From the NCBI GenBank assembly GCA_038046625.1, contig JBBSVV010000003.1, positions 4,017 to 68,016 on the forward strand: a stretch of DNA of 64,000 bases, read 5' to 3'. How positions within the stretch are numbered: position 1 is the first letter of the stretch; every line of letters begins with the position of its first letter. The DNA is from an archaeon. Its GTDB lineage: Archaea; Iainarchaeota; Iainarchaeia; Iainarchaeales; Iainarchaeaceae. Positions 1 to 43,940 of the stretch are shown here, piece after piece. The notes beneath the pieces are model-generated. The model was given only the letters and a program-made list of their open reading frames with translations, made no database searches and was not told the DNA's origin. The translations under genes were made by a program, and so were the position numbers.

Positions 1-95
1 GCCGGGGCTCTCGAACCTTTGGTTGAAATCAGCCCGCCTCTTGAAATTTGCGGGGGATGCAACCGCGAATGGTTATTCTGCGAACCAAGCAGAAT

Positions 96-167
96 GCAGC
101 TGCCGGGATTCGAACCCGGGCCAACAGCTTGGAAGGCTGTGATGCAAAACCGCTACACTACAGCTGC
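96..167 (-). tRNA. tRNA-Gly (anticodon TCC), 72 nt, no encoded CCA
   Basis: Reverse complement reads GCAGCTG-TAGTGTAGCGGTTTTGCATCA-CAGCC-TTCCAAG-CTGTT-...GGGTTCGAATCCCGG-CAGCTGC. It has a 7-bp acceptor stem, a GGTTCGAATCC T-arm and TCC in the anticodon loop. Confidence 0.8.
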
Positions 168-1049
168 TTTAAGGAAATCAGCATGGGTCGGAACTATTCC
201 CGTTTCCTTAAAAATCCTGTATTTTATTGAATGCTTAATATTGCTGGGTTTAATTAGTTTAAAAAAAGTATCCACGTGAGCCTGATCGTAGATATAAACG
301 CTTTTTCCGGATAAGCTTGCCTTAAATCCCAGTGAAACCAATGCGCACTTTACCTCATAGAGGAAATTTGGCGAACAGCTGATAAATTCGACTACCGCAC
401 TATTTTTTCTTCTTCTATGAAAACTTCCGTCAGTGTCGAATAAGCCCCTCAAATATGCTGCAAGAAGATTTCTGTCGTTGAGGATTTTCCTTTGGATAAA
501 CATCCTGTTTTTTCTGTTTCCTTTCGGAAACCCAAACTCTTCAGAAAGATATGAAACAAGCCGCTTTGAATAAACCTGGCAGCGTATTGCCCCGTTTTTA
601 ACGATAAAAGTCGGCTCCAGTCCGAATAGTTTTTCAAACTTTTTTCCAATGCTGTTTTTCACATACGCATTATCTACAATTGCTCCGCATGTAATTGATA
701 CCCTGTAATTTTTTTCGTAAATATTTCCGTCGCCTGACATGGCGCCAAGGAATTCCGCAAGCTCTTTGCCTAGTTTCGGTTTTCGGATTTCTTTTTCCCC
801 AAACTGGTCAAGTTCTATTAATTGCAATTTTTCAATTTCTTTTAAATCGAATCCTGTTTCTTTGCAGAGTGTTTTCAAATTGCTTAAAGATATCCTGCAA
901 TTTTCTTTTAAGTAGTGGAAAATCATTCTTTTTGTAACGCCGATTATATCTGCAATTTTTTGCCAGCCAAGCCCGGAGTGCTCTTTTATCTTTCTGAGAA
1001 CTGCCGCCTGATGCCAAAGGCCAGTCTGCACAAATAGTTCTTTTGCCAT
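153..1049 (-). CDS. Free-standing LAGLIDADG-type homing endonuclease-like protein with an N-terminal HTH; its 3' end overlaps the 5' end of tRNA-Gly
   Basis: Two LAGLIDADG-like motifs (LAEFLGAMSGDGNI and LAAYLRGLFDTDGSF) plus an N-terminal HTH-like segment (GWQKIADIIGVTKRMIFHYL). The last ~15 nt overlap the tRNA at 96-167. Confidence 0.6.
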   Translation of the reverse strand: MAKELFVQTGLWHQAAVLRKIKEHSGLGWQKIADIIGVTKRMIFHYLKENCRISLSNLKTLCKETGFDLKEIEKLQLIELDQFGEKEIRKPKLGKELAEFLGAMSGDGNIYEKNYRVSITCGAIVDNAYVKNSIGKKFEKLFGLEPTFIVKNGAIRCQVYSKRLVSYLSEEFGFPKGNRKNRMFIQRKILNDRNLLAAYLRGLFDTDGSFHRRRKNSAVVEFISCSPNFLYEVKCALVSLGFKASLSGKSVYIYDQAHVDTFFKLIKPSNIKHSIKYRIFKETGIVPTHADFLKAAVV

Positions 1050-1146: not shown

Positions 1147-1797
1147 ATGGGGAAAGGCATGTTCGTTGTTTTTGACGGCGTTGACGGCGCGGGAAAGGGA
1201 ACCGCAGTGAAAGGCGCTAAGAAGTTCCTTCTCTCTAAGGGGATTCCTGAATCTTGGATCGTCCATACTGCGGAGCCCACGAACGGATTTTACGGGAAAA
1301 AGGTTCGCGAGTTGCTTGTTTCTTCCCCGAAGCCTGAATTGAATGCGAAGCAGTTCCTGGATTTGTACGTTGCGGACAGGAAGGAGCATCTTGAAAAAAT
1401 TATTGAGCCGGCTTTGCGTGAGGGAAAAATCGTTTTGTGCGACCGCTTCAAGCACAGCACTTTCGTTTACCAGCATTTGCAGGGGATTCCGCTTGAAAAA
1501 ATCCGCGAACTGCATGAGGGAATGGCCACTCCTGATCTGGTTTTCATTCTGGACCTTCCGGTTGAGGTTGCGATGAAGAGGATACTGCGCAGAAAAAAGC
1601 TGGACACTTTCGAGCGGGCTGCTTTCATGGAAAAAGTGCGTGCAGGCTTCCTCAAGATGAAAGAAATTTTTCCGCGTGAGGACATAGTGTTCATTGACGC
1701 GTCGAAAAGCATTGGTGAAGTGAGGGCAAAAATAGGTTCGGTTCTTTGGAATAAAGTCAGGGAAAATGCGACCACCGGGAATCGAACCCGGCCCTGA
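1147..1797 (+). CDS. tmk: Thymidylate kinase (dTMP kinase)
   Basis: P-loop FVVFDGVDGAGKGT, DRF motif (LCDRFKHS), size ~216 aa. The ORF's 3' end runs into the minus-strand tRNA-Gly(GCC). Confidence 0.8.
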   Translation: MGKGMFVVFDGVDGAGKGTAVKGAKKFLLSKGIPESWIVHTAEPTNGFYGKKVRELLVSSPKPELNAKQFLDLYVADRKEHLEKIIEPALREGKIVLCDRFKHSTFVYQHLQGIPLEKIRELHEGMATPDLVFILDLPVEVAMKRILRRKKLDTFERAAFMEKVRAGFLKMKEIFPREDIVFIDASKSIGEVRAKIGSVLWNKVRENATTGNRTRP

Positions 1798-1837
1798 GCC
1801 TTGGCAAGGCCCAATCATACCAATAGACTATGGTCGC
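1767..1837 (-). tRNA. tRNA-Gly (anticodon GCC)
   Basis: Reverse complement reads GCGACCA-TA-GTCTATTGGTATGAT-TGGGCC-TTGCCAA-GGCTC-AGG-GCCGGGTTCGATTCCCGGT-GGTCGC-A. Canonical T-arm, GCC in the anticodon loop. Confidence 0.8.
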
Positions 1838-1842
1838 ACAAC

Positions 1843-1873
1843 CTTTTTTCTTTTCCCGGAGAAAAGAAAAAAG
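1843..1873. promoter_or_regulatory. Perfect palindrome CTTTTTTCTTTTC-ccgga-GAAAAGAAAAAAG immediately 5' of tRNA-Gly(GCC); candidate bidirectional promoter/oligo-T terminator element
   Basis: 12-13 bp inverted repeat seen directly. The same motif recurs at 3729, 3851, 3961, 22996 and 32538. Confidence 0.5.
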
Positions 1874-1961
1874 CTTGGCCAAAAAAGAAAAGCCATTCTT
1901 TGCCAAAAGAAAAGAACCCTAAGCCTAACAGATTTTTCCGTGGCGAAATCTTTTAAATTGC

Positions 1962-3683
1962 TCATTTCAACTGGCTAAGTATAACTGCTATTAAAGCCCC
2001 AAAAACCAGTATTCCAAGGCCTAAAACCCCTAGCAGGATATTTTGGCCGGTGAAAAGCTCCTGGATTTGCCCCTGCAAAGCCGGCTGTTGCGATTCGGGC
2101 TGCACCTCTTTTGCCTCGAGGGGCTGTTCCTGCACGGGCTTTTCCGGCACGATTATTTCGAATTCCCTTTCGACGCCGGCATTCACATTTACAGTCACTT
2201 TTCCGGGCTGAATGTTCTCTATTTTTTGCGTGAAGAGCTTTTGTGCTGATGCCTCAATGTTCACATTGCTCTTTGTTTCCTTTCCCAAGTAAATTACAGT
2301 TATTGTGGCTTCCCCTTCTGCATTGCCGTTGTTTTTAAGCAGAACCCTGAGTTCCAAATTGCTTCCATCAATGAACGGGCTCACGTCCTTGACGCTTATG
2401 TCGGCCGCTTTCTGTTCCGCGCCTTTCTTCTTCACGAGCTTTATTGTGCCGCTCATGTTTCCGTCCGGAAGAAGCAGGTACATTCCGTATGTGTAGTAGC
2501 CGTTCTTTGCCTCCTTGTCAGGCGCCTTCACTTTCCACGAAACCTCCTTTGTTTCCCGTGCTTTGAGGAAAATTATTTTGTTTTTTTGGTCCGCGCGGAA
2601 ATCCTCGTGCAGCGCAAGCTCCACCGGAAGTATCGCGTCCTCTCCCGAAACATTGGTTAATTGTGCCTTGATTTCAAAGCTTTCAAGCGGTTCAACTTCG
2701 GAGGGCTTTTCGAGCTTCGCGTCAAGCAGGCGCGTGAAGAACTCAACCGAATTTATTTTTATTTTCGGCTCCCCGAGCTGTGTCTGCACCTGAATCGCTT
2801 TCGCGCTTTTCGTGCTCAGGATTAAGTCCGCGGCTTTGTTCGCGTCGATTGTTTTTGCTATGGTGAAGTGCGCCGCGTCAAGGTATCCGGCCTCGCCATA
2901 AGTGCTGTCAACCCCTATCCAGCCGGTTCCCGGCAAATACGCCTCGAGCCAGCCATGAAGCCCAAAGCGCGTGCCGTCAAAGCTTATCCCCTTCACGTAT
3001 CTTGCGGGAATTCCTTTTGCGCGCAAAAATGCGGCGGTAAGGTTCGCGAACTCATCGCAGACGCCCGCGCGCGAATTGTATGTTTGTTTCGCGCTGTATG
3101 TGGCGCTGTAGTAGTTCTCGAAATCGTACGCAATGTTCTGGTTCACCCACTCGGTTATTCCGCGTATGGTTTCTATTTCAGAGTCGCTCGTGAATTCGAG
3201 CCGCGCCTTGCTCATTATTTCAGGGTCGCTTGATTCAATGTAATCGCTCGGCTTCTTATACTCCGGGAATTCCTTTATCGGGTTGGTTAGGTTGTAGTCT
3301 TCCCCAAGGCCGATTGCAGCGCTCCTCCTGACCCGCGCCTCCCTAATGATTTTGAATTGAGGTGCTTCCGCATACTCATGCAAATCATTTATTTTGTACA
3401 CCGCGTACTGCACCCCGTTTTTTTCTCCCCGTATCGGGAGAATTTTGTTCCCGCCTATTTCCATGTGCTCGTTCAGTTCAAGGAGCTCCTGGCCCTGTTC
3501 CTGCTGCATTGTGATGAACATTATTTCCATTTCGTCGCCTCTCGTTATTGTTCCGGAAAACGAGCCAGTTGCCTCTGAGGTTATGGTTACGTCCATGCTT
3601 TTCACGGTCGAGGGCCTGAATTCCTGCGCCGAAGCTGTTGAAAGCGCAAGAATAAACAGCAGCGCAAAAGCAATTTTTTTCAT
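1962..3683 (-). CDS. Secreted, C-terminally membrane-anchored transglutaminase-like cysteine protease domain protein
   Basis: N-terminal signal peptide (MKKIAFALLFILALSTASA) and C-terminal TM helix. Transglutaminase-like Cys/His/Asp core (GVCDEFANLTAAFLRAKGIP ... HGWLEAY ... GVDSTYG). Confidence 0.55.
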   Translation of the reverse strand: MKKIAFALLFILALSTASAQEFRPSTVKSMDVTITSEATGSFSGTITRGDEMEIMFITMQQEQGQELLELNEHMEIGGNKILPIRGEKNGVQYAVYKINDLHEYAEAPQFKIIREARVRRSAAIGLGEDYNLTNPIKEFPEYKKPSDYIESSDPEIMSKARLEFTSDSEIETIRGITEWVNQNIAYDFENYYSATYSAKQTYNSRAGVCDEFANLTAAFLRAKGIPARYVKGISFDGTRFGLHGWLEAYLPGTGWIGVDSTYGEAGYLDAAHFTIAKTIDANKAADLILSTKSAKAIQVQTQLGEPKIKINSVEFFTRLLDAKLEKPSEVEPLESFEIKAQLTNVSGEDAILPVELALHEDFRADQKNKIIFLKARETKEVSWKVKAPDKEAKNGYYTYGMYLLLPDGNMSGTIKLVKKKGAEQKAADISVKDVSPFIDGSNLELRVLLKNNGNAEGEATITVIYLGKETKSNVNIEASAQKLFTQKIENIQPGKVTVNVNAGVEREFEIIVPEKPVQEQPLEAKEVQPESQQPALQGQIQELFTGQNILLGVLGLGILVFGALIAVILSQLK

Positions 3684-3728
3684 GCACAGAAATAGTGTTT
3701 CTTTATTTTAATTGCTTGTGCTGCAGCC

Positions 3729-3759
3729 TTTTTTTTCTCTTTGGAAGAGAAAAGAAAAC
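3729..3759. promoter_or_regulatory. TTTTTTTTCTCTT-tggaa-GAGAAAAGAAAA palindrome (family member)
   Basis: Inverted repeat seen directly, between the transglutaminase-like gene and tRNA-Val. Confidence 0.4.
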
Positions 3760-3850
3760 TTTGGCGAAAGAAAAGAGAAACCGGTTTTGACACTTTTCTT
3801 TGGTACAGCTTTTCAATGGCCTTTTCCTGCACTTTTCTTTTTAGCACGGA

Positions 3851-3880
3851 TTTTTCTTTTCGTGCAACGAAAAGAAAAAA
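3851..3880. promoter_or_regulatory. TTTTTCTTTTCG-tgcaa-CGAAAAGAAAAAA palindrome abutting the 3' end of tRNA-Val
   Basis: Perfect 12-bp inverted repeat 4 nt from the tRNA 3' end. Confidence 0.5.
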
Positions 3881-3883
3881 GTG

Positions 3884-3956
3884 TGGGCCCGGCAGGAATC
3901 GAACCTGCGATTTCTTCGATGTAAACGAAGCGTCCTAACCGCTAGACCACGAGCCC
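3884..3956 (-). tRNA. tRNA-Val (anticodon TAC)
   Basis: Reverse complement reads GGGCTCG-TG-GTCTAGCGGTTAGGAC-GCTTCG-TTTACAT-CGAAG-AAATC-GCAGGTTCGATTCCTGC-CGGGCCC-A. Confidence 0.8.
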
Positions 3957-3960
3957 AACC

Positions 3961-3988
3961 TTTTTTCTTTTCTTGCGAAAAGAAAAAA
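3961..3988. promoter_or_regulatory. TTTTTTCTTTTC-ttgc-GAAAAGAAAAAA palindrome immediately 5' of tRNA-Val
   Basis: Perfect 12-bp inverted repeat with a 4-nt spacer, 5 nt from the tRNA 5' end. Confidence 0.5.
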
Positions 3989-4105
3989 CGTTGACGAAAA
4001 AAGAAAAGGCAAGTCCTGTTGCTGGAACAGCGTAGAATGAAGTGCCCTGATAGGGTTAAAAAAGTTGGCTAAAAAGGGAAAAAAGGCTTCTGAAGCAGAA
4101 GCCGT

Positions 4106-4396
4106 TTACTTTGTTTCTATTATTATTCCGCCGACCATTCCCGCGAATACATTGTACAGGAATGCGCTTAGTGCGCCGCCTATGAATCCTAATACTCCGT
4201 AAATTATCGGAAGTATTATTATTGACAGTACTCCGCCAAAGAGGCCTCCCGTAATTCCTGCCCCGTTTCCGCCTGCTATTGCCCCGAGCACAAGCGATAA
4301 TACCGTTAAGAGTGCCCCGAATATCAGGCCGATTACTGCGTATGTCACTCCCATGATTTTTGCCATGGACATGACGCCTATTTTCCTGATTTCCAA
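4106..4396 (-). CDS. Small glycine-rich integral membrane protein (hypothetical)
   Basis: 96-aa ORF, almost entirely hydrophobic and Gly-rich with 2-3 predicted TM helices. Coding status rests on ORF length only. Confidence 0.35.
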   Translation of the reverse strand: MEIRKIGVMSMAKIMGVTYAVIGLIFGALLTVLSLVLGAIAGGNGAGITGGLFGGVLSIIILPIIYGVLGFIGGALSAFLYNVFAGMVGGIIIETK

Positions 4397-4493
4397 AAGA
4401 AATCACCTCGCACACACATTGCGTTGCTCCGTATAAATTACTTTCATTTTTTGGCGCTTTACGGAAGCCTTATATATGATTTAATTGTATTAA

Positions 4494-14813: not shown

Positions 14814-15004
14814 AGCGGGATTCAAAGAAGATTGTGAAGTTCTGTTCCCGCTGCGGCTCAACGGATTTGAAGCCGCTTTATTTCATGGAAGCAATCGACA
14901 ATAGAATGCAGTGCATGGGCTGCAATGTGATTGAATTCCCTGTTGAGGGCACTGAAAAGTTTCGGAAAGAATTTTTGGAGGGAAGTAAAAATGCCGGCAA
15001 ATAA
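14810..15004 (+). CDS. Small zinc-ribbon protein
   Basis: CSRCGS...CMGCN CxxC pairs; 64 aa. Confidence 0.3.
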   Translation: MKRDSKKIVKFCSRCGSTDLKPLYFMEAIDNRMQCMGCNVIEFPVEGTEKFRKEFLEGSKNAGK

Positions 15005-18000
15005 CGAGGAAATCGGCACGGTAATAAGCAGCATGGATGGCCCTTCGCCGAGCGCATTGGATGTTGTTATTTATTCCGGAAAATTGCACCGCGGCCAGTT
15101 CGTTGAATTGGATTACAGTGAAGGAACCCTGGTTGCGCTTGTAACCGATGTAGTGAAAACAAACAGGTATTTTGAGCGCGTTGAATCCGTGAAGGAGTTC
15201 GAGCGTTCCGGCACGAAATTGTTCGAGCAGTTTCCTACTGCGGAGTGGGAATACCTTGTTGCAAAAACAAGGCCGCTTGGAGTTTATGATAAGGGCTTGA
15301 TTAAGCGCTCGACTTTTCCGCCTTCACCGGGCACAAAGGTTCGGGTTGCGGAGAAGGAAACGCTTGAAAAGTTTTTGGGCCTTGACCTTGAAAAGGGTTT
15401 GATGCTTGGGGAAATCGAGCACCACGGGGTTTTTGTGAAATTAAATCTCTCCCGCCTTTTCCAGAAGCATCTTGCGATTCTCGCAATGAGCGGCGCCGGG
15501 AAAAGCTATTTGGTTTCTGTTTTGCTCGAGGAATTGTTGGAGAGGAAGAAGGAGGATGGGCGCCTCGCTGTGATTGTGATGGACGCGCACGGCGAATACC
15601 GTTCTTTTGCCGAGCCTGTTCCCGACAAGAAGCACAGCGATTTTTCCTCAAAATCCAGGTTTGTGCGCGCCTCGGAAATCCAGATTGGTGTCCCAAAGCT
15701 TTCAATCGGTTTGCTTGCCGCGCTGATTCCTGGCCTTTCGGCGCCGCAGAAGCGTGACCTCGCAAGGGTTATTGAAAGATTGCGCAAGGAAATGAAAGAT
15801 GGCCTCGGGCCCTTTGACTTCAATGCGGTAAAGGCGGAGATTATGAAGGATTCTGAAATGAAGGAAGTAACAAAGATGTCTCTAATTGGGTGGATAATGT
15901 CCCTCGAGCAGCTTCACTTGTTTGGCAAGACTGATGCGCCCGGAATCAGCGATTTGGTGAAGCCGGGGCAGCTTACAATAATTGATTTGAGCGACGTGAT
16001 TGACCTTAAGAAGAAGCAGATTATTGTCGCGTATTATGCGCGCAAACTTTTTGATGAGAGGCGCGCAAAGCGTGTTCCTCCTTTCAGTATTGTTGTCGAG
16101 GAAGCGCATCAGTTCGCACCAGAAAGGGTTTCAAAAGAAGGTTCCATCAGCAAGCACGTGATTGAAACCATTGCCAGAGAAGGAAGGAAGTTCGGTGCGA
16201 GCATCTGTCTGATTTCGCAGAGGCCGGTTAACCTTTCAACTACGGCTTTGAGCCAGTGTGTTTCACCAGAAACTCAAGTGATTCTTTCAGACGGGCAGGA
16301 GTGTGCCATATCAGATTTCGAAAATAATTATTCCAAGACAAAATTAACAAGCTGCGATATTGAGAAAGGCAAATTGGAAGGGGCATATATTTCGCATTAT
16401 CAAAAAAATAATCCAAAGCAACAGGGGAAAAAATGCTTTGAAATAACTACTGTCGCAGGAAGACAATTAAAATGTACAGGCGACCACCCAATTTGGACAA
16501 AGGGAAAAGGATGGGTTAATGCGGCGGATTTAACTTTCAGCGATAAGGTGGCTATATTGCCGACAATTAAATCATATCCAGGGACTCCTGTTCTTGAAAT
16601 ATCTTCTGACTGCCTATCAGGTCTACTGCCTTCAACAATTAACAAGCAAAGATTGTTTGAAGAATTACAAGAAAAAGGTTTAATAGATAAAGAAATAGAA
16701 CCTCAAAAGATATTGGCTTTGGCGAGGCTCATCGGCCATATTTTTGGCGACGGTTCCCTGCATCCGCCTTACAAAAACAAACAGGGGCAGCATTCGCTGC
16801 GAATTACATTTTCAGGTTCGGAAGAAGATTTGCAGGAAATAAAAAACGATTTGGCATTTCTAGGCTTTAAGTCTGATCAAAAAATAAGCAGGCAAGTCAA
16901 AACTTCATATTCAAACTTTGTAAATTTTGGAAAAAGAAAAATTCACGGAACCTCAATATGTTTCAAAACTGGCATTGTAGGGCTTTGGGCTATTTTAAGA
17001 TTTTTGGGAGCTCCATTAGGGGATAAATCAAACACTAAAGTTTGTATGCCTAAGTGGATTTTAGATTCTCATATTTCCGTCAAAAGGGAATTCCTCTCAT
17101 CTTTGTGCGGAAGCGAATGTTCTGCGATAAGGTGGGACGGAAAATATCCTGATAGGCCTATTCTCCCATTTTCCAAGGTTGAATCGTTAAGCGGGAGCGG
17201 GCATTTGTATGCAAATAGTCTTATTTCTATGTTTCAAGATTTTGGAGTCAAGTCAAACTTATATGTAAGAGATTATGTGTGGAGAAAAGATGGCGCAAAA
17301 AGTCTGCAATTTATTATTTCGATAAATAGGTCGCGAAATAATTTGATTAATTTCTTGTCAAATGTTAACTATCGTTATGCTGTTAAAAAAAGAAGTGCGG
17401 GTTTGCATGTCTTAGAATATTTAAAATGGCTCAACATAAAACTTAATCAGAAAACAGGGCTGTTCAGCGAAGTAAATAAATCTGTCGGCGAAGTTGGTTC
17501 CAAGCAAACTTCATTGATTTATAAAATGCATAAGAAAGTTGTTGAAAACTGGGCAAGTATGGGTGTTGAAAAGTTACGACTCGCCCCGGCAGATAAAATA
17601 CCCGCTTATTCGTATTGGATAAAAGAAAAAACAGAGTCTCTTTCGGCTGGTTTAATTTGGGACGATGTAGAATATATTGAGCCCATTGTGCTTTCTGACG
17701 TAAGAGATATAACTGTTCCAAATCATCATTGTTTTTTTGCTAACGGATTTTTGACCCATAACTGCAACACCCACATTATTCTCCGTGTTACTAATCCTTA
17801 TGATTTGGACCACATCAAGCAGACCAGCGAGGGCATTGACCAAAGGACTGTTGACATGATTACTTCTCTCAGAACAGGCGAAGCCATAATTGTGGGCGAA
17901 GCCGTGAATTATCCCGTGTTTTTCAAGGTGCGCAAAAAAACCGTGCAGGATTCGCGGCACGAAAAGTCCCTCGAGGCTTCCGCTCTGGAGTTTGAGGAGA

Positions 18001-18041
18001 ACCGCGAGGAAAGGACAAAAGAACTTGATGATTTGCTGTGA
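14991..18041 (+). CDS. herA: HerA helicase (FtsK-HerA ATPase) interrupted by a 502-aa LAGLIDADG intein (nt 16257-17762)
   Basis: Walker A (AILAMSGAGKSYLV) and Walker B (IVVEEAHQFAP). The intein starts at Cys (SQ|CVSPETQVILSDG) and ends ...FLTHN|CNTHII, with LAGLIDADG blocks LIGHIFGDGSL / LSSLCGSECS. Start chosen at MPANNEEIG. Confidence 0.8.
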   Translation: MPANNEEIGTVISSMDGPSPSALDVVIYSGKLHRGQFVELDYSEGTLVALVTDVVKTNRYFERVESVKEFERSGTKLFEQFPTAEWEYLVAKTRPLGVYDKGLIKRSTFPPSPGTKVRVAEKETLEKFLGLDLEKGLMLGEIEHHGVFVKLNLSRLFQKHLAILAMSGAGKSYLVSVLLEELLERKKEDGRLAVIVMDAHGEYRSFAEPVPDKKHSDFSSKSRFVRASEIQIGVPKLSIGLLAALIPGLSAPQKRDLARVIERLRKEMKDGLGPFDFNAVKAEIMKDSEMKEVTKMSLIGWIMSLEQLHLFGKTDAPGISDLVKPGQLTIIDLSDVIDLKKKQIIVAYYARKLFDERRAKRVPPFSIVVEEAHQFAPERVSKEGSISKHVIETIAREGRKFGASICLISQRPVNLSTTALSQCVSPETQVILSDGQECAISDFENNYSKTKLTSCDIEKGKLEGAYISHYQKNNPKQQGKKCFEITTVAGRQLKCTGDHPIWTKGKGWVNAADLTFSDKVAILPTIKSYPGTPVLEISSDCLSGLLPSTINKQRLFEELQEKGLIDKEIEPQKILALARLIGHIFGDGSLHPPYKNKQGQHSLRITFSGSEEDLQEIKNDLAFLGFKSDQKISRQVKTSYSNFVNFGKRKIHGTSICFKTGIVGLWAILRFLGAPLGDKSNTKVCMPKWILDSHISVKREFLSSLCGSECSAIRWDGKYPDRPILPFSKVESLSGSGHLYANSLISMFQDFGVKSNLYVRDYVWRKDGAKSLQFIISINRSRNNLINFLSNVNYRYAVKKRSAGLHVLEYLKWLNIKLNQKTGLFSEVNKSVGEVGSKQTSLIYKMHKKVVENWASMGVEKLRLAPADKIPAYSYWIKEKTESLSAGLIWDDVEYIEPIVLSDVRDITVPNHHCFFANGFLTHNCNTHIILRVTNPYDLDHIKQTSEGIDQRTVDMITSLRTGEAIIVGEAVNYPVFFKVRKKTVQDSRHEKSLEASALEFEENREERTKELDDLL

Positions 18042-22368: not shown

Positions 22369-22428
22369 CTGCTATCTAGCACCTGGCAGAGCAAAGCTCT
22401 GCCGGGCCTCGTACCCTACGGGTAGAAG
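22369..22428 (-). repeat. Structured repeat element, copy G (hairpin-module variant)
   Basis: The reverse complement aligns to 34270-34345. GTACCCGTAGGGTAC hairpin is shared. The second hairpin GGCAGAGC-tttg-CTCTGCC covaries with CGCAGAATC-ttct-GATTCTGC(A). Confidence 0.6.
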
Positions 22429-22471
22429 GAACCACATTAAAATGCCGAAAACTTTCGTGGTTTGCTATAAA

Positions 22472-22735
22472 TCAGAGCAGCGTCATACCCTCTATTTCCG
22501 CGTCCTCTACTTCTTTTAGTTTTTTCACTTCTTCAAGAACGCGGTCAATTGCCTTCTCGTCTTTCGAGTTAACCAGTATGCCGGCTTTTATTACTTCGAC
22601 GCCGAAGCCTATTGGTTCGCGTTTCACGTCCTTTACTTCGCCGCTTTTTATGCCCTTTACTGCCTTTACCGTTGCGTCAAGTTTTTCCAGGTCTTTGGCG
22701 TTTATTTTGAGAATTAGAAGCGTTTTGTCCGGCAT
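22472..22735 (-). CDS. ef1b: Elongation factor 1-beta (aEF-1beta)
   Basis: 87 aa; ...REPIGFGVEVIKAGILV... matches the archaeal EF-1beta guanine-nucleotide exchange domain. Confidence 0.7.
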   Translation of the reverse strand: MPDKTLLILKINAKDLEKLDATVKAVKGIKSGEVKDVKREPIGFGVEVIKAGILVNSKDEKAIDRVLEEVKKLKEVEDAEIEGMTLL

Positions 22736-22762
22736 CTTATCACGGGCTCAAATTAGGGCTGC

Positions 22763-22918
22763 TTACGGGCCTTCGAATCCGCATTCTTTGCACTTGTATA
22801 CGAGGCTTCTTTTGCGCGCATCCAAGCTGCGGTCTATTTTTGTGCCGCATCCAGGGCACTTGAACTCAATGAAATCGTCCGTGAGAATTTTGTTGGTTGT
22901 AATGCATGTTTTTATCAT
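22763..22918 (-). CDS. Small zinc-ribbon protein (51 aa), in the position usual for the Zn-finger gene beside ef1b in archaea
   Basis: Hand-translated: MIKTCITTNKILTDDFIEFKCPGCGTKIDRSLDARKRSLVYKCKECGFEGP. CPGC...CKEC zinc ribbon. Below the ORF-track length cutoff. Confidence 0.45.
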   Translation of the reverse strand: MIKTCITTNKILTDDFIEFKCPGCGTKIDRSLDARKRSLVYKCKECGFEGP

Positions 22919-22995
22919 TGAAAAAACCTTATTTTTAGCGGCATTATTTGTCTAGTATTCTCTATTGAGTTACCTTTAAAAAGGTTGATTTCAGC

Positions 22996-23021
22996 CTTTT
23001 TCTTTCTTGCGAGAAAGAAAA
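22996..23021. promoter_or_regulatory. TTTTTCTTTCT-tgcg-AGAAAGAAAAA palindrome upstream of the tRNA-like 5' fragment
   Basis: Same inverted-repeat family as the motifs flanking the tRNAs. Confidence 0.45.
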
Positions 23022-23103
23022 ACGCTGGCGAAAAAGAAAGAGACGGGGCATATTTTTGGCCATAGAACCTTTAATTAAGTGTTTTTCACCCATTTTTTTG
23101 CAC

Positions 23104-23140
23104 GGGCCCGTAGCTCAGCCAGGATAGCGCCCACCTCCGC
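23104..23140 (+). pseudogene. tRNA 5'-half-like fragment (acceptor + D-arm + anticodon-stem 5' strand), related to the 5' half of tRNA-Arg at 24216
   Basis: GGGCCCGTAGCTCAGCCAGGATAGCGCCCACCTCCGC aligns with GGGCTCGTCGCTA...ACGGATAAGCACCCCGCCTTCG. No matching 3' half follows. Its 3' 10 nt (CCACCTCCGC) are complementary to 23274-23283 (GCGGAGGTGG). Confidence 0.45.
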
Positions 23141-23396
23141 AATCGAATTTTTTCCTAAGACTCGGATTTTCTCGGCTTAAACCTTTGCACACTTCAACCC
23201 CTGCTTTTGGTGCAAAGGGTTTAATGCCTCCAAAACCCGCAAGACGTCTTTCGGAAAAAATTTCATCATTTAGCGGAGGTGGTCAAATGGTCGAAATTCC
23301 GATTCCAAACAAAGAAGAAATAGATTTAGCAGTAGAGGCTGAAGAGTTGACGGACAGGGAACTGTGGATTCTTAGCAAGTTTGGAGGTGATTTTGA

Positions 23397-24236
23397 ATGA
23401 ATCTCGCATCGGCAATCAGCCCTCTAAAATTGTATAATAATGCTTCAGAAGTACCTGCCATTATGGGCTTTGATTTTTCGTCAGATTTGGCCGAGGTTTG
23501 CGGCATCCATGCGGGCGACGGATACCTTCGTAATGACGGAAAAAGAAGGGAGCTAGACATCAGCGGCGGCATTGATGAAAAGGAATATTATGATTCGCAT
23601 GTCGTGCCTCTTTTTGAACGAGTTTTTGGAATAAATATTACTCCAAAATTTTTTCCAAAACGTCATACTTACGGTTTTGTAATTCGCGACAGAAACATTG
23701 TTGAGTTTATGCACTCGCTTGGGTTTCCTTATGGGGCAAAAACTTTCACAGTTTCAGTTCCTGAATTTGTTTCCAATTCCAAAAATTTGGATATACTATA
23801 TAGTTTCATTAGGGGCGCTTTTGACACAGATGGTTGCCTAGCTTTTCAAAAGAAAGTGGGAAGCGGCTATAAAAGTGAAGTAAAGAGGAAGCACTCCTTT
23901 CCTGTAGTTCAGATAAGTATCTGCTCTAAACCATTTTGTGATGGGCTGTGTTCACTTTTCAGGAAAACCGGTTTTAACTGCAAAGTTGTCATGCAGAAAC
24001 CTACTTATGACTATCAACACGTGAAATATGCCTTGTATTTGAGGGGTTATTCTAATCTTAAAAGTTGGATGCGCAACATTGGGTTCAAAAATACTTCAAA
24101 ACTATCGCGCTATGAGGTTTGGGAGAAATTCGGTTTTTGTCCTACTAACATTTCTTTTGAGCAGAGAAAACAAATATTAAATAATGAACTTGACCCCAAT
24201 TCCTTCTATAAGCATGGGCTCGTCGCTAACGGATAA
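23397..24236 (+). CDS. Free-standing LAGLIDADG-type homing endonuclease-like protein; its 3' end overlaps the 5' end of tRNA-Arg
   Basis: Motifs LAEVCGIHAGDGYL and LYSFIRGAFDTDGCL. The stop codon (24234-24236) lies 20 nt inside the tRNA. Confidence 0.6.
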   Translation: MNLASAISPLKLYNNASEVPAIMGFDFSSDLAEVCGIHAGDGYLRNDGKRRELDISGGIDEKEYYDSHVVPLFERVFGINITPKFFPKRHTYGFVIRDRNIVEFMHSLGFPYGAKTFTVSVPEFVSNSKNLDILYSFIRGAFDTDGCLAFQKKVGSGYKSEVKRKHSFPVVQISICSKPFCDGLCSLFRKTGFNCKVVMQKPTYDYQHVKYALYLRGYSNLKSWMRNIGFKNTSKLSRYEVWEKFGFCPTNISFEQRKQILNNELDPNSFYKHGLVANG

Positions 24237-24286
24237 GCACCCCGCCTTCGAAGCGGGCGATGAGGGTTCGAATCCCTCCGAGCCCG
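24216..24286 (+). tRNA. tRNA-Arg (anticodon TCG)
   Basis: GGGCTCG-TC-GCTAACGGATAAGC-A-CCCGC-CTTCGAA-GCGGG-CGAT-GAGGGTTCGAATCCCTC-CGAGCCC-G. Perfect acceptor, anticodon and T stems. The D-arm is short (3 bp). Confidence 0.7.
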
Positions 24287-24461
24287 CTGCACTTTCACGC
24301 AGAATCCTTGATTCTGCTGAAACCTGCACTAAAAAGAAAGAGTGCCGGAAAAAGAAAAGACCCCTGTTTCTGGCTCGGCAAGCCGTGCTTGGCCGGTTTC
24401 AATGTGGCCAGGGCTCGCTTTCTTTTAGGCAAGGAATTAATACTCGCAAGTAGTTGTATTT

Positions 24462-24947
24462 TTGATGAAGCCAAAAATATTGCCGCGTGCAAGAAAGTTT
24501 TTGAAAAGGCATAAAGGGAAACTAATTATCCCAGTTGGCCTTGGTATTGCGGTTGCGTCCGCTTCTTTTGGCCCGAAGTTAATTGAGCGCGGTGCAGATT
24601 ACTTGAACGCGCGCAAGGCGGATGCGATGAGGCAACACAGGCTTGACCTTACCGTTGAGCGGGGGAGGTTTGTTAATGAATTTTTTTCAAAGACCGGCGC
24701 TGTTCCTGAATCGAGAGAAGATTGCAATGCCCTCTGGGCATATTATTACAATAAAAGCCCCGCCCTGAAAGGCCTTTGGGAGCCAATTCTCAAAAAAACA
24801 AGGGAGGAAAAGCTCCGTGACCGCGTTTTTGTGCAGGAGTTCGGGGATGCAGGCCTGGAGTTTGAATTGGCGGTTGTGAGGGAAGCGCAACCGGAATTTT
24901 TTAAAAAGGCGCTTGCTTTGGACAAAGGCGCAGCGAAAAAGAAATGA
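24462..24947 (+). CDS. Hypothetical protein with an N-terminal TM segment
   Basis: 161-aa ORF; no recognisable domain. Confidence 0.35.
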   Translation: MMKPKILPRARKFLKRHKGKLIIPVGLGIAVASASFGPKLIERGADYLNARKADAMRQHRLDLTVERGRFVNEFFSKTGAVPESREDCNALWAYYYNKSPALKGLWEPILKKTREEKLRDRVFVQEFGDAGLEFELAVVREAQPEFFKKALALDKGAAKKK

Positions 24948-32183: not shown

Positions 32184-32534
32184 ATGGGCAAAACGCTTTT
32201 GGCTGTTTTGGGCATCGGGAAGGGCACATGGGGGCATGTTGCCCGGCTTATTTCCGAGGAAAAGTTCGACAAGGTACTGCTTATTTCCAACGAGTGGGGC
32301 AAGGAAAACTTTAAGCCGTTGAAGGAGTGCGACTGGATAATGATTAACAACCGCGCGGGCTTCGAGGTAATAAAGGAAGAAATCAAATCCAAGTTGCCTG
32401 AAAAGGATGATTTGGTGCTCTCGCTGATAAGCGGCTCCGGAAGGGAGCACATGGCTGTCCTTGCTGCCATAAAGGACAAGAAGCTCGAATTCAGGATTGT
32501 TATCCTTACGGGCGAAGGAACCAAGTACTACTAA
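32184..32534 (+). CDS. Hypothetical Rossmann-like small protein
   Basis: MGKTLLAVLGIGKGTWGH... Gly-rich N-terminal loop; 116 aa. No confident family. Confidence 0.35.
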   Translation: MGKTLLAVLGIGKGTWGHVARLISEEKFDKVLLISNEWGKENFKPLKECDWIMINNRAGFEVIKEEIKSKLPEKDDLVLSLISGSGREHMAVLAAIKDKKLEFRIVILTGEGTKYY

Positions 32535-32537
32535 CAC

Positions 32538-32566
32538 CTTTTTCTTTTCGTTGACGCGAAAAGAAA
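32538..32566. promoter_or_regulatory. CTTTTTCTTTTCG-ttgacg-CGAAAAGAAA palindrome
   Basis: Same family as the tRNA-flanking palindromes. Followed by two short hairpins. Confidence 0.45.
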
Positions 32567-32628
32567 CCGGGCAGAACAAAAGTTCTGCACGGCCACGCAA
32601 AATCAAAAGATTTTGCATGGAAGCTGTA
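32567..32628 (+). ncRNA. Candidate small structured RNA: two adjacent AAAA-looped hairpins bracketed by tRNA-type palindromic flank motifs
   Basis: GCAGAAC-aaaa-GTTCTGC (32571-32588) and GCAAAATC-aaaa-GATTTTGC (32597-32616). A/T-rich GAAAAGAAA motifs on both sides (32557-32566 and 32630-32660). Confidence 0.3.
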
Positions 32629-32682
32629 CCAAAAAGAAAAGTGTAAGGCTGTGCCAAAAAGAAAGAGAACGGCTTTTGCTGT

Positions 32683-34240: not shown

Positions 34241-34402
34241 AGTTTCGTCTGTTGGGTGCGAGTACTATCTCCTTGTACCCGTAGGGTACGAGGCCTCGCA
34301 GAATCTTCTGATTCTGCAAGGTCGCTTGGGCTCGATAGTAAGTTTGGTTATGGGTGTGAGGCACGATACTTCGCAGTTGACCTGCTTTGCGTTTGGTGAT
34401 GT
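34241..34402 (+). repeat. Structured repeat element, copy E (long form), inserted just upstream of abce1 and preceded by a diverged duplicate of the first 44 nt of abce1
   Basis: Starts ACAACAGTTTCGTCTGTTGGGTGCGA. Contains GTACCCGTAGGGTAC, CGCAGAATCttctGATTCTGC and GGGCTCGATAGT. 34197-34240 repeats 34406-34449 with 5 synonymous differences. Confidence 0.7.
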
Positions 34403-43800: not shown

Positions 43801-43915
43801 TATCTTCGGTTTTGGCCTCGATAGGTCTTGCTTCGCAATTTTCCCGTTCAAAATATCAAGTTCCACAACAGTTTCGGCTGTTGGGTGCGATAGCCCATGC
43901 TGTCGCATGGACTTG
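43774..43915 (+). repeat. Structured repeat element, copy C (module 1 + hairpin module CAACAGTTTCGGCTGTTGGGTGCGATAGCCCATGC), with a diverged duplicate of the prepilin-peptidase gene 3' end
   Basis: CCGGAAACCGCCGGCGGTATGGTGCCCTATCTTCGGTTTTGGCCTCGATAGG, then a ~45-bp direct repeat (43827-43870 versus 43916-43960). Confidence 0.65.
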
Positions 43916-43940
43916 GCGTTGCTTCGCAACGCAGGCTTAT

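Follow-up and report, generated by a model that had tools for sequence, protein, structure and literature searches.

Palindromes near tRNA genes of an Iainarchaeota archaeon may be the hairpin cores of a tRNA-precursor module with a triple-helix fold

What are the T-rich/A-rich palindromes that stand beside tRNA genes in a 64,000-nucleotide stretch of DNA (the window) from an Iainarchaeota (Diapherotrites) archaeon? An earlier note on this DNA had named six of them and had read each as an oligo-T terminator in one direction and a promoter or regulator-binding site in the other. All six are present at the positions given there. Three of them (1846, 3852 and 3963) have the exact form TTTTCTTTTC-N3-8-GAAAAGAAAA, of which none is expected by chance (0 in 100 shuffles), while the remaining three (3729, 22997 and 32541) are looser, with arms that are still complementary. 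The half-site GAAAAGAAAA occurs 10 times in the window, compared with an expectation of 2.07.

The palindrome is the hairpin part of a larger module of about 50–130 nt, and one to three further purine boxes lie on one side of every copy. The order of the parts is a short GC clamp, (A)ACC, then the T-arm, the loop, the A-arm, a linker of 7–8 nt and the one to three purine boxes. One arm is homopyrimidine and the other homopurine; the inner G is nearly always isolated, with GG in only a few imperfect arms. All arms and boxes have the form T4-6 C T3-6, and no TA step is found inside the arms. Seven copies, M1 to M7, are located within the window (Table 1), and the fold of M7 has a z-score of -5.0.

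Table 1. Module copies and neighbouring features of the window, in plus-strand coordinates
Feature	Position	Strand	Parts	Context
tRNA-Gly(GCC)	1766..1838	-		5' end 4 nt from M1
M1	1842..1917	-	T-arm 1842-1855; loop 1856-1860; A-arm 1861-1873; linker 1874-1880; box 1 1881-1892; box 2 1905-1914(-1917)	tRNA-Gly(GCC) 5' leader; sense (minus) order U-box2, U-box1, linker, U-arm, loop, A-arm, 4 nt, tRNA
TATA box TTTAAAAG	1950..1957	-		5 nt past transglutaminase-like ORF stop; 33 nt upstream of M1 first U-box
ORF	1962-3683	-		module box is first T-run after stop
M2	3727..3780	+	T-arm 3729-3742 (one G.T mismatch); A-arm 3745-3758; linker 3759-3766; mirror box 3767-3780	
M3	3793..3881	-	hairpin 3851-3881 (T-arm 3851-3861, loop 3862-3868, A-arm 3869-3881); linker 3843-3850; box 1 3832-3842; box 2 3793-3801	tRNA-Val 3' trailer; order in tRNA sense tRNA, 3 nt, U-arm, loop, A-arm, linker, A-box, A-box
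tRNA-Val(TAC)	3883..3956	-		between M3 and M4
M4	3957..4009	-	AACC 3957-3960; T-arm 3960-3972; loop 3973-3976; A-arm 3977-3988; linker CGTTGACG 3989-3996; mirror box 3997-4008	tRNA-Val 5' leader
TATA-like TTTTTTAA	4056-4063	-		overlaps stop of ORF upstream of M4
ORF	4056-4415	-		module box is first T-run after stop
ORF	22578-22955	+		module box is first T-run after stop
M5	22995..23042	+	T-arm 22995-23008; A-arm GAGAAAGAAAAA 23011-23022; linker CGCTGGCG 23023-23030; mirror box AAAAAGAAAGAG 23031-23042	variant, A3 spacing
TATA-like TTTAATTAAG	23070-23079	+		ahead of tRNA-Arg(CCG)-like 5' half
tRNA-Arg(CCG)-like 5' half	23104-23147	+		followed by T6 run 23148-23153
M6	24299..24359	+	small hairpin GCAGAATC..GATTCTGC 24299-24317 replaces pyrimidine/purine hairpin; linker CCTGCACT; boxes 24331-24342 and 24349-24359	12-72 nt past tRNA-Arg(TCG)
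ORF	32184-32534	+		module box is first T-run after stop
M7	32537..32669	+	hairpin 32537-32566; two inserted small hairpins 32571-32588 and 32597-32616; boxes 32631-32641 and 32656-32669	between two plus-strand genes

The surroundings of these copies agree with the earlier note in part. The tRNA-Val gene is bracketed, with the hairpin at 3851-3881 placed 3–4 nt from its 3' end and the hairpin at 3960-3988 placed 4 nt from its 5' end, and tRNA-Gly(GCC) has its hairpin 4 nt upstream; tRNA-Gly(TCC), also in the window, is without a module. The palindrome at 22996, which had been assigned to the tRNA-Arg locus, lies 1.2 kb away and is unrelated to that gene. About 60 nt downstream of it there is an unannotated 5' half resembling tRNA-Arg(CCG), for which no 3' half is present in the window. 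The repeat reported downstream of tRNA-Arg does exist as boxes at 24331-24359, but these are mirror repeats and not direct ones. The remark that no protein-coding gene of the window has the motif was misleading, as module boxes form the first T-runs 3' of the stops of four ORFs.

The position relative to tRNA genes follows strict rules in 759 kb of related Iainarchaeota loci containing 165 tRNAs. Of 37 pyrimidine/purine hairpins, 25 are inside a tRNA intron or no more than 12 nt from a tRNA end, where 0.31 would be expected (P about 1e-43), and 1–5 nt, most often 3, separate the hairpin arm from tRNA +1. At all 18 of the 5' sites the A-arm, as defined by a regular expression, ends 1–5 nt ahead of +1, and the purine run often reaches 1–2 nt beyond the arm so defined; at 3' sites the T-arm starts 1–9 nt past the tRNA. 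The hairpin is next to the tRNA or exon, with the boxes distal to it; this holds for the boxes at 17 of 18 sites on the 5' side and at 4 of 5 on the 3' side, and no site has the reverse. At least four copies, placed in the sense orientation, are found in tRNA introns (tRNA-Leu of loci L003 and L007, tRNA-Arg of L090 and tRNA-Gly of L201). With introns allowed, ARAGORN gives introns of 76 nt in the tRNA-Leu(CAA) of L003, 68 nt in the tRNA-Leu(TAA) of L007 and 61 nt in the tRNA-Arg(TCT) of L090, together with two tRNAs in L201. The module-bearing introns sit at position 37/38 of otherwise complete tRNAs, as canonical archaeal tRNA introns do, and several of these long-intron tRNAs are missed by default tRNA finders. 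Leaving aside a few copies in intergenic spacers, the module of Iainarchaeota and other DPANN archaea occupies stretches of the tRNA precursor that are later removed: 5' leaders, 3' trailers and anticodon introns.

The leader at 5' sites consists entirely of the module, which follows the TATA box of the tRNA gene. A conserved tRNA TATA box precedes 17 of the 18 5' copies. The element TTTAAAAG, directly past the stop of the transglutaminase-like ORF, is conserved 24–37 nt upstream of the first U-box, and relatives without a module have the same TATA box 25–45 nt before the tRNA. Since this TATA box is upstream of the module, the module at 5' sites is a transcribed tRNA leader and not a promoter, and the promoter or regulator-site half of the earlier proposal is not supported. 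The boxes are moreover mirror copies of the arms, which are not repeats to a protein that binds double-stranded DNA, and the arms are not placed as an archaeal BRE/TATA element would be, with TATA about 26 nt before the transcription start. It is barely credible that the distal T-rich arm serves as a TATA substitute, so that transcription would start at tRNA +1 and the tRNAs would be leaderless like those of Nanoarchaeum equitans. The distal arm does fall at about -36 to -21 from tRNA +1 in M1, M4, L056 and L084, but loop length shifts it by as much as 8 nt, against a fixed distance from A-arm to tRNA, the canonical TATA box further upstream is conserved and serves the module-less relatives, the arms lack a TA step, trailers and introns carry the same module, and a gene for the RNase P protein Rpr2 is found nearby in relatives L137-L140.

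The terminator half of the earlier proposal fares better. In Methanococcus maripaludis the smallest signal to which the termination factor aCPSF1 binds consists of two U4 tracts, and termination efficacy goes up with the number of such tracts (PMC8716108). The arms and boxes of the module carry at least two U4 tracts within about 18–30 nt of the transcribed strand, as the aCPSF1 signal does (PMC8716108). Each T-arm or T-box provides two tracts of U4 or longer, and because each box is a canonical two-U4-tract archaeal signal, the terminator idea is partly right. The copies are not in general located at the 3' end of a transcription unit, even though those at 3' sites and behind some ORFs are. 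As 17 of 18 5' copies are inside a transcribed leader and at least four are in tRNA introns, they cannot be efficient terminators in the sense direction, and termination leaves the homopurine/homopyrimidine composition and the co-variation of three strands unexplained.

A more elaborate version sees a bidirectional but orientation-biased oligo-U terminator or insulator without any higher-order fold, in which the two U4 tracts of each arm or box would serve as an aCPSF1/FttA-type signal and a hairpin would arise simply because both strands carry T-tracts. Polymerases nearing a tRNA gene from either side would meet two or three signals and departing ones only one. The boxes indeed face incoming transcription, the T-arm begins just past tRNA 3' ends, module boxes are the first T-runs past several ORF stops, and the U4-C-U4(-6) units match the minimal element, whose efficacy rises with tract number (PMC8716108). 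This version is nevertheless somewhat unlikely, given that most copies lie inside leaders and introns, so that the tRNA's own transcript, starting from a TATA box on the far side, would have to cross two or three terminators at 5' sites. Ordinary terminators of the window are T5-T8 runs interrupted by any base, whereas the module tracts are strictly homopyrimidine and interrupted by C only. In addition, the C positions are conserved and co-vary mirror-wise among three strands, including the paired purine arm, and linker length and clamp sequence are kept across phyla.

The feature that termination leaves aside is the symmetry of the boxes. Boxes compared with their adjacent arms are mirror images in 34 cases and direct repeats in 3; a further 3 are ties. 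The run lengths of arm and box agree, in opposite order, in at least eight classes of signature, for example (1,4,6)/(6,4), (1,3,5)/(5,3,1), (1,5,4)/(4,5) and (2,1,3,5)/(5,3,1,2), and the longest mirrored match of an arm to its own box has a mean of 11.26 nt, compared with 9.35 +/- 0.19 nt for shuffled boxes (p<5e-5). Genomes differ in their arms at the orthologous tRNA-Val site, and there the three strands change together. In terms of strands, the purine arm has a Watson-Crick complement in the other arm and a parallel, Hoogsteen-type complement in the box, and all three co-vary. The mirror rule and the co-variation fit a U.A-U / C+.G-C triple helix and, as the strands co-vary in the way an RNA triple helix requires, the module appears to be more than a terminator or a promoter. 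Some of this co-variation might stem from common ancestry of whole-module variants and not from many independent compensatory changes. Imperfect arms with a known context are few, and the comparison of wobbles with mismatches among them does not single out the folded strand.

Other features also point to a folded single strand. The linker is 7–8 nt long in 18 of 22 cases, and the clamp pairs co-vary (CAAC/GUUG, CAAG/CUUG, CGA/UCG). Linker insertions of 40–70 nt (M7, both L137 tRNA-Val modules, L054 and L017) are hairpins themselves, so that the geometry of a folded single strand is preserved. Minimum free energy (MFE) structures from RNAfold contain the clamp and hairpin and leave the U-box unpaired in three of four leaders; in the fourth, the leader of L138, the MFE structure pairs the U-box with the A-arm and the box is free only in the centroid. 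Several familiar arrangements were considered and set aside. A direct-repeat protein-binding array or a set of iterons does not suit boxes that mirror the arms and are neither direct nor inverted copies of them. In an alternative-hairpin switch, with the box pairing to the purine arm, only a symmetric 9-nt core could pair, and of the four leaders folded only that of L138 has this pairing in its MFE structure. A leader-trailer processing stem like that of rRNA would require modules on both sides, which is the case at tRNA-Val only, and there the linkers are not complementary.

We give somewhat less than an even chance to the reading that the palindromes are the hairpin cores of a conserved tRNA-precursor module with a triple-helix fold, a reading drawn from sequence patterns. 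A strand that runs box, linker, pyrimidine arm, loop, purine arm would form the hairpin and lay the box into its major groove as a third strand, with predicted U.A-U triples and isolated C+.G-C triples. In 5' leaders the folding strand would be the sense RNA, and the fold would end 3–4 nt ahead of the RNase P site. Cleavage by RNase P would release an RNA, either the leader or the read-through mRNA of a co-oriented upstream gene, whose A-rich 3' end is buried in the triple helix, following the logic of MALAT1/mascRNA. The fold would also hide U4 tracts that otherwise are canonical aCPSF1 signals, and in this way allow read-through into the tRNA. On the opposite strand, or in an unfolded module, the U4 tracts could act as leaky terminators, so that the limits of transcripts near tRNA genes might be marked by the module as well.

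The triple-helix reading meets several difficulties. In trailers, introns and some spacers (M7, and L137 at 14170) the sense RNA has the hairpin followed by a purine box, which would need a purine-motif (A.A-U) triplex, and such triplexes are poorly precedented in RNA. Alternatively, the strand that folds at these sites may be antisense RNA or single-stranded DNA. The clamp of 4–5 bp separates the third strand from the A/U helix, and 2–3 nt are available for the crossing, which may be feasible if pseudoknot loops are a guide. C+.G-C triples need protonated cytosine, and the T5-T6 runs of the leaders should end part of the transcripts. The wider proposal, that an encoded RNA triple helix of 10–13 U.A-U / C+.G-C triples would be a standard attachment of DPANN tRNA genes and that RNase P, RNase Z and the splicing endonuclease would release triplex-buried ends, is doubtful rather than probable.

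The same symmetry could be read at the level of DNA. Under negative supercoiling the mirror repeats might form H-DNA and the inverted repeat a cruciform or, alternatively, a DNA-binding protein might read phased A-tracts and exclude chromatin, bend the DNA or mark tRNA genes. The purine arm together with the box makes a perfect homopurine mirror repeat with a 7–8 nt spacer, which is the classical H-DNA motif, both DNA strands satisfy a triplex rule, which would explain why the module occurs in both orientations, and the boxes of M1, M4 and M5 are spaced 19–22 bp apart, close to two turns of the helix. Such explanations are very unlikely all the same. For H-DNA the arms of 10–13 bp are short, a protein that binds double-stranded DNA would not see mirror copies as equivalent sites, and self-folding hairpins of 40–70 nt are tolerated in the spacer, where they would break both H-DNA geometry and protein phasing. 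The module also differs from H-DNA repeats in having an extra inverted-repeat arm on the same strand. Furthermore, the hairpin is at a fixed distance from RNA processing sites, which indicates a constraint at the RNA level.

The module extends well beyond Iainarchaeota. Among the matches listed from other DPANN phyla, with GC contents of 29–56%, it is the sole DNA in common with the window, with 85–91% identity over about 55 nt, linkers included; no homology outside the module was found by tblastx or blastn between the window and the palindrome-match loci listed. M5, for instance, is 91% identical to a copy in L045, a locus that is otherwise unrelated. Among the matches listed, 8 of 14 archaeal palindromes are within 40 nt of a tRNA, compared with 2 of 128 bacterial or viral ones. 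Turnover is fast among close relatives; relatives were gathered via the transglutaminase-like protein. In Iainarchaeum andersonii, whose transglutaminase has 95% amino-acid identity to that of the window, the flanks are conserved and the modules swapped. M2 is missing in the 95%-identical relative L137 and is therefore a discrete indel of ~60 nt, and the number of boxes also differs between the window and L137. Only some relatives have a module at the tRNA-Gly(GCC) site; at the tRNA-Val site every Iainarchaeota locus has one, down to about 50% protein identity. M2 and M3 are an inverted pair. No target-site duplication was seen at M1-M7, and one copy in L023 is flanked by a 33-bp direct duplication.

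As a short palindromic multi-copy intergenic repeat that is gained, lost and replaced among close relatives, the module resembles bacterial REP, BIME and REPIN sequences and MITEs. It might accordingly be a selfish, non-autonomous element whose hairpin DNA is recognised by a transposase or recombinase and which, lacking any host function, survives only at harmless sites such as the removable parts of tRNA transcripts and gene spacers. The sharing of the module alone, linkers included, by the unrelated DPANN genomes listed favours such mobility, as do the swapped modules and changed box numbers between kept flanks, the variable tRNA-Gly(GCC) site, the duplication in L023 and the presence of look-alike multi-copy elements in bacteria and a few viral contigs. 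We regard a purely selfish element as distinctly unlikely, however, as most copies have neither a target-site duplication nor a pair of terminal inverted repeats, no linked transposase or RAYT has come to notice, orientation to the tRNA is strict with +1 spacing kept within 1–5 nt, and the tRNA-Val site is filled in every Iainarchaeota locus. The conserved third mirror strand would still need structural selection, so that mobility alone is an incomplete explanation. With its fast turnover by replacement, insertion and deletion, the family acts like a dispersed repeat whose structure is under selection.

RNA ends are protected by long major-groove RNA triple helices in long non-coding RNAs of vertebrates, in herpesviruses and in eukaryotic transposons. 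The prokaryotic examples in a 2026 review of RNA triple helices come only from riboswitches and group II introns. The closest likeness to the module is the ENE+A of vertebrate MALAT1 and MEN-beta with mascRNA, along with the PAN ENE. Like the proposed fold of the module, these have two U-rich strands and an encoded A-rich tract within one RNA, a Hoogsteen strand parallel to the A strand, mostly U.A-U with isolated C+.G-C triples, and an A-rich tract that ends directly 5' of a tRNA-shaped RNase P substrate, so that cleavage would leave the 3' end inside the triplex (PMC8457004). The module has the same strand composition of two pyrimidine strands and one purine strand, the third being the parallel complement of the purine strand. 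It differs in using a hairpin and an upstream third strand across a short clamp in place of the ENE core, a U-rich internal loop flanked by stems. It also has a real tRNA downstream, opposite-orientation copies in trailers and introns, and archaeal hosts; it has no sequence or Rfam similarity to the MALAT1 type.

Small RNAs are also made through tRNA processing in archaea, as with the C/D box sRNA in a Haloferax tRNA intron and the tRNA-linked sRNAs of Nanoarchaeum equitans. The module is comparable as a short structured RNA in a leader, trailer or intron that would be freed by RNase P, RNase Z or the splicing endonuclease. Unlike these sRNAs, it has no C/D or K-turn motifs, and its leader copies are the reverse complements of those in trailers and introns. 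Searches of Rfam gave no module match at gathering score, nor at E<=5 for window positions 1700-4100, nor at E<=1 for positions 22400-24600 and L045; the matches obtained were tRNAs and chance matches to microRNA or plastid families only. Literature searches on this motif, on DPANN tRNA flanks and on archaeal triple helices yielded nothing relevant. Even if the triplex reading fails, the module is an undescribed repeat family that is linked to tRNA genes in several phyla by strict positional rules.

If the triple-helix reading is correct, the module would be a prokaryotic counterpart of MALAT1/mascRNA, and tRNA-punctuated transcripts would be implied in compact DPANN genomes. It would show how these tiny genomes delimit and stabilise transcripts around tRNA genes, and a triplex module tied to tRNA genes in archaea would mean that the device is ancient or easily reinvented. 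With the bacterial look-alikes included, long triple helices would become a cross-domain device for RNA end protection or termination control, and a simple natural triplex of 55–60 nt would be at hand for biophysics. The module matters for annotation as well, since its tracts resemble terminators yet sit in transcribed leaders, and long-intron tRNAs escape default finders.

Among the matches listed, a similar multi-copy architecture is found in bacteria and in a few viral contigs. Ends of the IS200/IS605 or attC type were considered for the bacterial look-alikes and set aside, with no supporting feature found. The arrangement of hairpin, clamp and mirror box is seen downstream of bacterial genes in rumen Clostridia, Stenotrophomonas and Lentisphaerae.

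Each of the palindromes in the window is part of a larger oriented module. An (A)ACC or CAGCC segment comes first, then a T-arm with T5-6 C T3-4 C as its typical sequence, which a 3-9 nt loop separates from the A-arm; a 7-8 nt linker (e.g., CGTTGACG, CGCTGGCG or GCTTGGCC) leads on to one, two or three purine boxes, for example A5-6 G A3-4 G (A A C). The initial 4-5 nt of this linker form a clamp with the AACC/CAGCC segment, and the clamp pairs co-vary (CAAC/GTTG, CAGC/GCTG, CGA/TCG). The window has seven modules (M1-M7). M2 and M3 form a 153-nt inverted pair between tRNA-Val and the transglutaminase promoter, M6, which follows tRNA-Arg(TCG), has lost the pyrimidine/purine hairpin, and in M7, between two plus-strand genes, two additional small hairpins separate the main hairpin from the boxes. 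The exact palindrome TTTTCTTTTC-N3-8-GAAAAGAAAA has 3 copies in the window and 0 in 100 shuffles; with the relaxed, still complementary copies at 3729, 22997 and 32541, this bears out the six palindromes of the earlier note. The flanking copies that the note described are also there: tRNA-Val has one on each side, at 3-4 nt, and for tRNA-Gly(GCC) a copy lies 4 nt off the 5' end. The copy at 22996 that it assigned to the tRNA-Arg locus is 1.2 kb from tRNA-Arg and unrelated to it, and its statement that no protein-coding gene has the motif is misleading, as several such genes end beside it.

A scan for the exact palindrome with one genome per species gave at least 119 loci. Among the matches listed, 14 loci are from DPANN archaea (Iainarchaeota, Micrarchaeota, Aenigmatarchaeota and unclassified, GC 29-56%), and these carry the whole module including linker and box, features outside the search criterion. 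The module is 85-91% identical to the window over ~55 nt, and no other resemblance between these loci and the window was found except one weak protein match and a 31-nt identity. Another 76 loci of Iainarchaeota type were gathered by alignment of the transglutaminase-like protein. In a census of 759 kb holding 165 tRNAs, 25 of the 37 pyrimidine/purine hairpins lie at most 12 nt from a tRNA end or within a tRNA intron, versus 0.31 expected (P ~1e-43). The hairpin faces the tRNA and the boxes are distal at 17 of 18 sites on the 5' side and at 4 of 5 on the 3' side (0 reversed); the A-arm ends 1-5 nt (mode 3) before tRNA +1. Modules occur in tRNA introns at the comparison loci L003, L007, L090 and L201, and probably also L092; the intron copies are all ordered 5' exon, ~5 nt, hairpin, box. 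Near-tRNA palindromes make up 2 of 128 in bacteria and viruses among the matches listed. Default ARAGORN failed to detect DPANN tRNAs whose introns span 61-181 nt (L003, L007, L090, L084, L201, L164), several of which the Rfam tRNA model did not detect either; the 181-nt intron of the L084 tRNA-Tyr has degenerate box-like tracts and small hairpins. At L045, two inverted modules enclose ~240 nt that match no Rfam family, and this flanking by modules suggests an unannotated RNA gene.

The box is the mirror image of the neighbouring arm (mirror 34, direct 3, ties 3 by ungapped match scoring), and not the direct repeat that had been claimed. Run-length signatures of arm and box mirror each other, as in (1,4,6)/(6,4), (1,3,5)/(5,3,1,1), (1,5,4)/(4,5), (2,4,6)/(6,4,2), (2,1,3,5)/(5,3,1,2) and (2,3,4)/(4,3,2). 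An arm and its own box share a longest mirrored match of 11.26 nt on average, versus 9.35 +/- 0.19 when the boxes are shuffled between modules (p<5e-5); for direct repeats, the score barely exceeds the shuffled one. At the orthologous tRNA-Val site, the three strands read C T4 C T6 / T6 C T4 C / G A4 G A6 in the window, T5 C T4 / C T4 C T5 / A5 G A4 G in L138 and T3 C T3 C T5 / C T5 C T3 C T / A G A3 G A5 G in L139. Throughout, the purine arm has two complements, the pyrimidine box in parallel orientation and the other arm in antiparallel Watson-Crick orientation. This is the rule of the pyrimidine-motif triple helix (U.A-U, C+.G-C), while the complementary strand of the same pattern follows the purine-motif rule. 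The arms are strictly homopurine or homopyrimidine, their internal G residues are nearly always isolated, and the linker length is constant, consistent with the triplex rule. Where the linker is long (M7, both tRNA-Val modules of the Iainarchaeum andersonii locus L137, L054, L017, L145), the added sequence is one or two hairpins, so that the linker ends stay close in the folded single strand. RNAfold predicts the clamp and hairpin and leaves the U-box unpaired in 3 of the 4 leaders folded; the minimum-energy structure of the L138 leader pairs the U-box with the A-arm. The fold of M7 has a z-score of -5.0. We know of no mutational process that creates mirror repeats, and, to our knowledge, mirror copies are not equivalent sites for double-stranded DNA-binding proteins.

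In module-free relatives, TTTAAAAG comes after the transglutaminase stop codon, and tRNA-Gly(GCC) starts another 25-45 nt on; this is a normal archaeal promoter with a short leader. The window, L137, L139-141, L148 and L163 keep the same TATA box and the ~30-nt 'old leader', and the module lies between this leader and tRNA-Gly(GCC). The promoter role proposed in the earlier note is therefore not supported, since the conserved TATA box is upstream of the module and serves module-free relatives as well. The tRNA-Val site has the same TATA-then-module arrangement, with TTTTTAAT-type boxes. The distance from the TATA box to the first U-box is 24-37 nt in nearly all cases, so the primary transcript should start 0-12 nt before the first U-box, and, judged from sequence, the module would be essentially the whole tRNA leader at 5' sites. 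The leaders are presumably removed by RNase P, as the gene for its protein Rpr2 is in the syntenic neighbourhood of L137-L140, in a part outside the window.

Because the module is inside the leader, the sense transcript must traverse two or three T4-6 C T4-6 tracts. In Methanococcus maripaludis, the minimal element bound by the termination factor aCPSF1 is two U4 tracts, and extra U tracts raise termination, which remains partial (PMC8716108). All module arms and boxes satisfy this definition, the T-arm directly follows the tRNA at 3' sites, and the first T-runs after several window ORFs are module boxes. Thus the suggestion that the palindromes are terminators has real support, but it cannot be the whole story, because modules also lie in leaders and introns, their tract interruptions differ from those of ordinary window terminators (T5-T8 runs interrupted by any base), and termination does not need mirror co-variation. 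The two could be reconciled if a fold buried the U tracts: the polymerase would read through folded tracts and terminate at unfolded or antisense ones.

The reading that we prefer, with somewhat less than an even chance of being correct, is that the single-stranded module folds as a clamp-closed hairpin with the box as third strand, the folding strand being the sense RNA in 5' leaders. The fold would adjoin the RNase P site and its clamp would take in tRNA G+1, so that cleavage would give a leader, or a read-through mRNA of a co-oriented upstream gene, ending in a triplex-buried A-rich tract. The ENE+A element of MALAT1, followed by mascRNA, has the same end-burying logic (PMC8457004). A difficulty for the triplex fold is that the third strand has just 2-3 nt to cross the clamp. 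Where the module lies in a trailer or an intron, and in some of the gene spacers (M7; L137 at 14170, in front of the S19e gene), it is the purine-box version that the sense RNA carries, a type of RNA triplex that is poorly precedented. Such copies may act via antisense RNA or single-stranded DNA, or may merely be hairpins with terminator tracts.

The window and I. andersonii (transglutaminase 95% identical in amino acids) hardly differ in their tRNA and promoter flanks. The trailer hairpin has changed class and its box has changed with it, two small hairpins are inserted in L137, the ~60-nt M2 is absent there, and the tRNA-Gly leader has one U-box in L137 and two in the window. Some Iainarchaeota have a module at the tRNA-Gly(GCC) site and others have none there, while at the tRNA-Val site every locus down to ~50% protein identity has one. 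The module family thus behaves like a dispersed repeat whose copies are quickly replaced, inserted or deleted, yet it stays constrained in structure and position. The sole candidate insertion footprint seen is at L023, where the module and ~27 nt lie between copies of a 33-bp direct duplication, gcttaattcttttttagataaattcattt. The module resembles REP- and MITE-like repeats in turnover but not demonstrably in mobility. It shares the signal of aCPSF1 terminators, from which its placement and co-variation set it apart, and it shares strand logic and tRNA adjacency with ENE/MALAT1 triple helices, which have another topology and other hosts. The mirror repeat it has in common with H-DNA motifs, but unlike them it tolerates spacer insertions. 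Rfam has no family matching the module, a literature search found no account of it, and a 2026 review of RNA triple helices gives riboswitches and group II introns as the only prokaryotic cases.

Among the matches listed, about half of the ~105 bacterial loci have, besides the exact palindrome, an unselected flanking box and a co-varying GC clamp (gccgcT..Agcggc, gcaccT..Aggtgc, gttac..gtaac). These elements follow stop codons at 5-25 nt and are hardly ever found between divergent genes, and informative box comparisons give mirror 28 versus direct 11 (ties 32). A ~150-nt repeat unit of rumen Clostridiales consists of hairpin and box, a gene-specific stem-loop, and box and second hairpin. Hosts of hairpin, clamp and mirror box include rumen and gut Clostridiales (many copies per genome), Stenotrophomonas maltophilia, Lentisphaerae, Cellvibrionaceae and Chitinophagales; in S. 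maltophilia PC315, a ~575-bp inverted repeat ends in two copies. The extra box is present in 4 of 17 IMG/VR viral contigs with the palindrome (L120, L121, L123, L133); L133 has its copy a second time where the contig ends, and copies in Oscillospiraceae genomes (L022, L059, L099) resemble those of L121 and L133.

The window is archaeal; it encodes HerA, a VirB11-like ATPase, Rad50, ABCE1, archaeal DnaG and ThrRS. Its transglutaminase-like protein is 95% identical to one of Candidatus Iainarchaeum andersonii (GCA_000402355.1), and further homologues carry Diapherotrites annotation. Four tRNA genes are present.

Coordinates of tRNA genes, small hairpins and other features in the window and at comparison loci
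Feature	Sequence	Position	Strand
tRNA-Gly(TCC)	window	95-167	-
LAGLIDADG/HTH ORF	window	153-1049	-
LAGLIDADG/HTH ORF	L139	13118-14014	
LAGLIDADG/HTH ORF	L140	3856-4752	
Thymidylate kinase ORF	window	1147-1797	+
Its overlap with tRNA-Gly(GCC)	window	1766-1797	
tRNA-Gly(GCC)	window	1766-1838	-
tRNA-Val(TAC)	window	3883-3956	-
HerA helicase, with intein	window	14931-18041	+
TATA-like box	window	23070-23079	
tRNA-Arg(CCG)-like 5' half	window	23104-23147 (with T6 run, to 23153)	
tRNA-Arg(TCG)	window	24216-24287	+
GCAGAAY-loop-RTTCTGC hairpin	window	24299-24317	
GCAGAAY-loop-RTTCTGC hairpin	window	32571-32588	
GCAGAAY-loop-RTTCTGC hairpin	window	34298-34317	
GCAGAAY-loop-RTTCTGC hairpin	L137	9155-9172	
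ORF at the 31-nt stretch	window	43225-43959	-
31-nt stretch	window	43866-43896	
31-nt stretch	L056	3945-3975	
VirB11/T2SSE-type ATPase, with intein	window	47965-51204	-
Module within direct duplication	L023	3310-3460	
Inverted module pair	L045	7665-7967	
tRNA-Tyr with 181-nt intron	L084	5876-6129	
Bacterial look-alike	L016	5660-5900	
Bacterial look-alike	L097	5580-5730	
Bacterial look-alike	L005	1816-2390	

The small hairpin GCAGAAY-loop-RTTCTGC recurs within or beside M6, M7 and the L137 tRNA-Val trailer, with a single copy upstream of the ABCE1 gene, and apparently represents a second conserved building block. The window also has an unannotated tRNA-Arg(CCG)-like 5' half, with a TATA-like box of its own 24 nt upstream and a T6 run directly after its anticodon region. 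The 5' exon of the L090 tRNA-Arg is near-identical to it in the acceptor strand, the D-arm and the anticodon loop; no matching 3' half (T-arm plus CGGGCCC) was found within the window. Possible explanations are a split tRNA gene like those of Nanoarchaeum equitans, a tRNA whose intron is very long, and a pseudogene. Both the HerA helicase and the VirB11/T2SSE-type ATPase contain inteins, the latter with a LAGLIDADG domain. Thymidylate kinase and tRNA-Gly(TCC) are separated by a free-standing LAGLIDADG/HTH homing-endonuclease-like ORF, which marine relatives (L139, L140) have kept at this position and the predicted 3' end of which overlaps the tRNA-Gly(TCC) gene call; the thymidylate kinase ORF overlaps the opposite-strand tRNA-Gly(GCC) by ~30 nt. 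The 31-nt stretch AACAGTTTCGGCTGTTGGGTGCGATAGCCC, inside or next to an ORF in the window, is 100% identical in L056, a Diapherotrites contig otherwise unrelated to the window, where it lies ~35 nt from tRNA-Leu.
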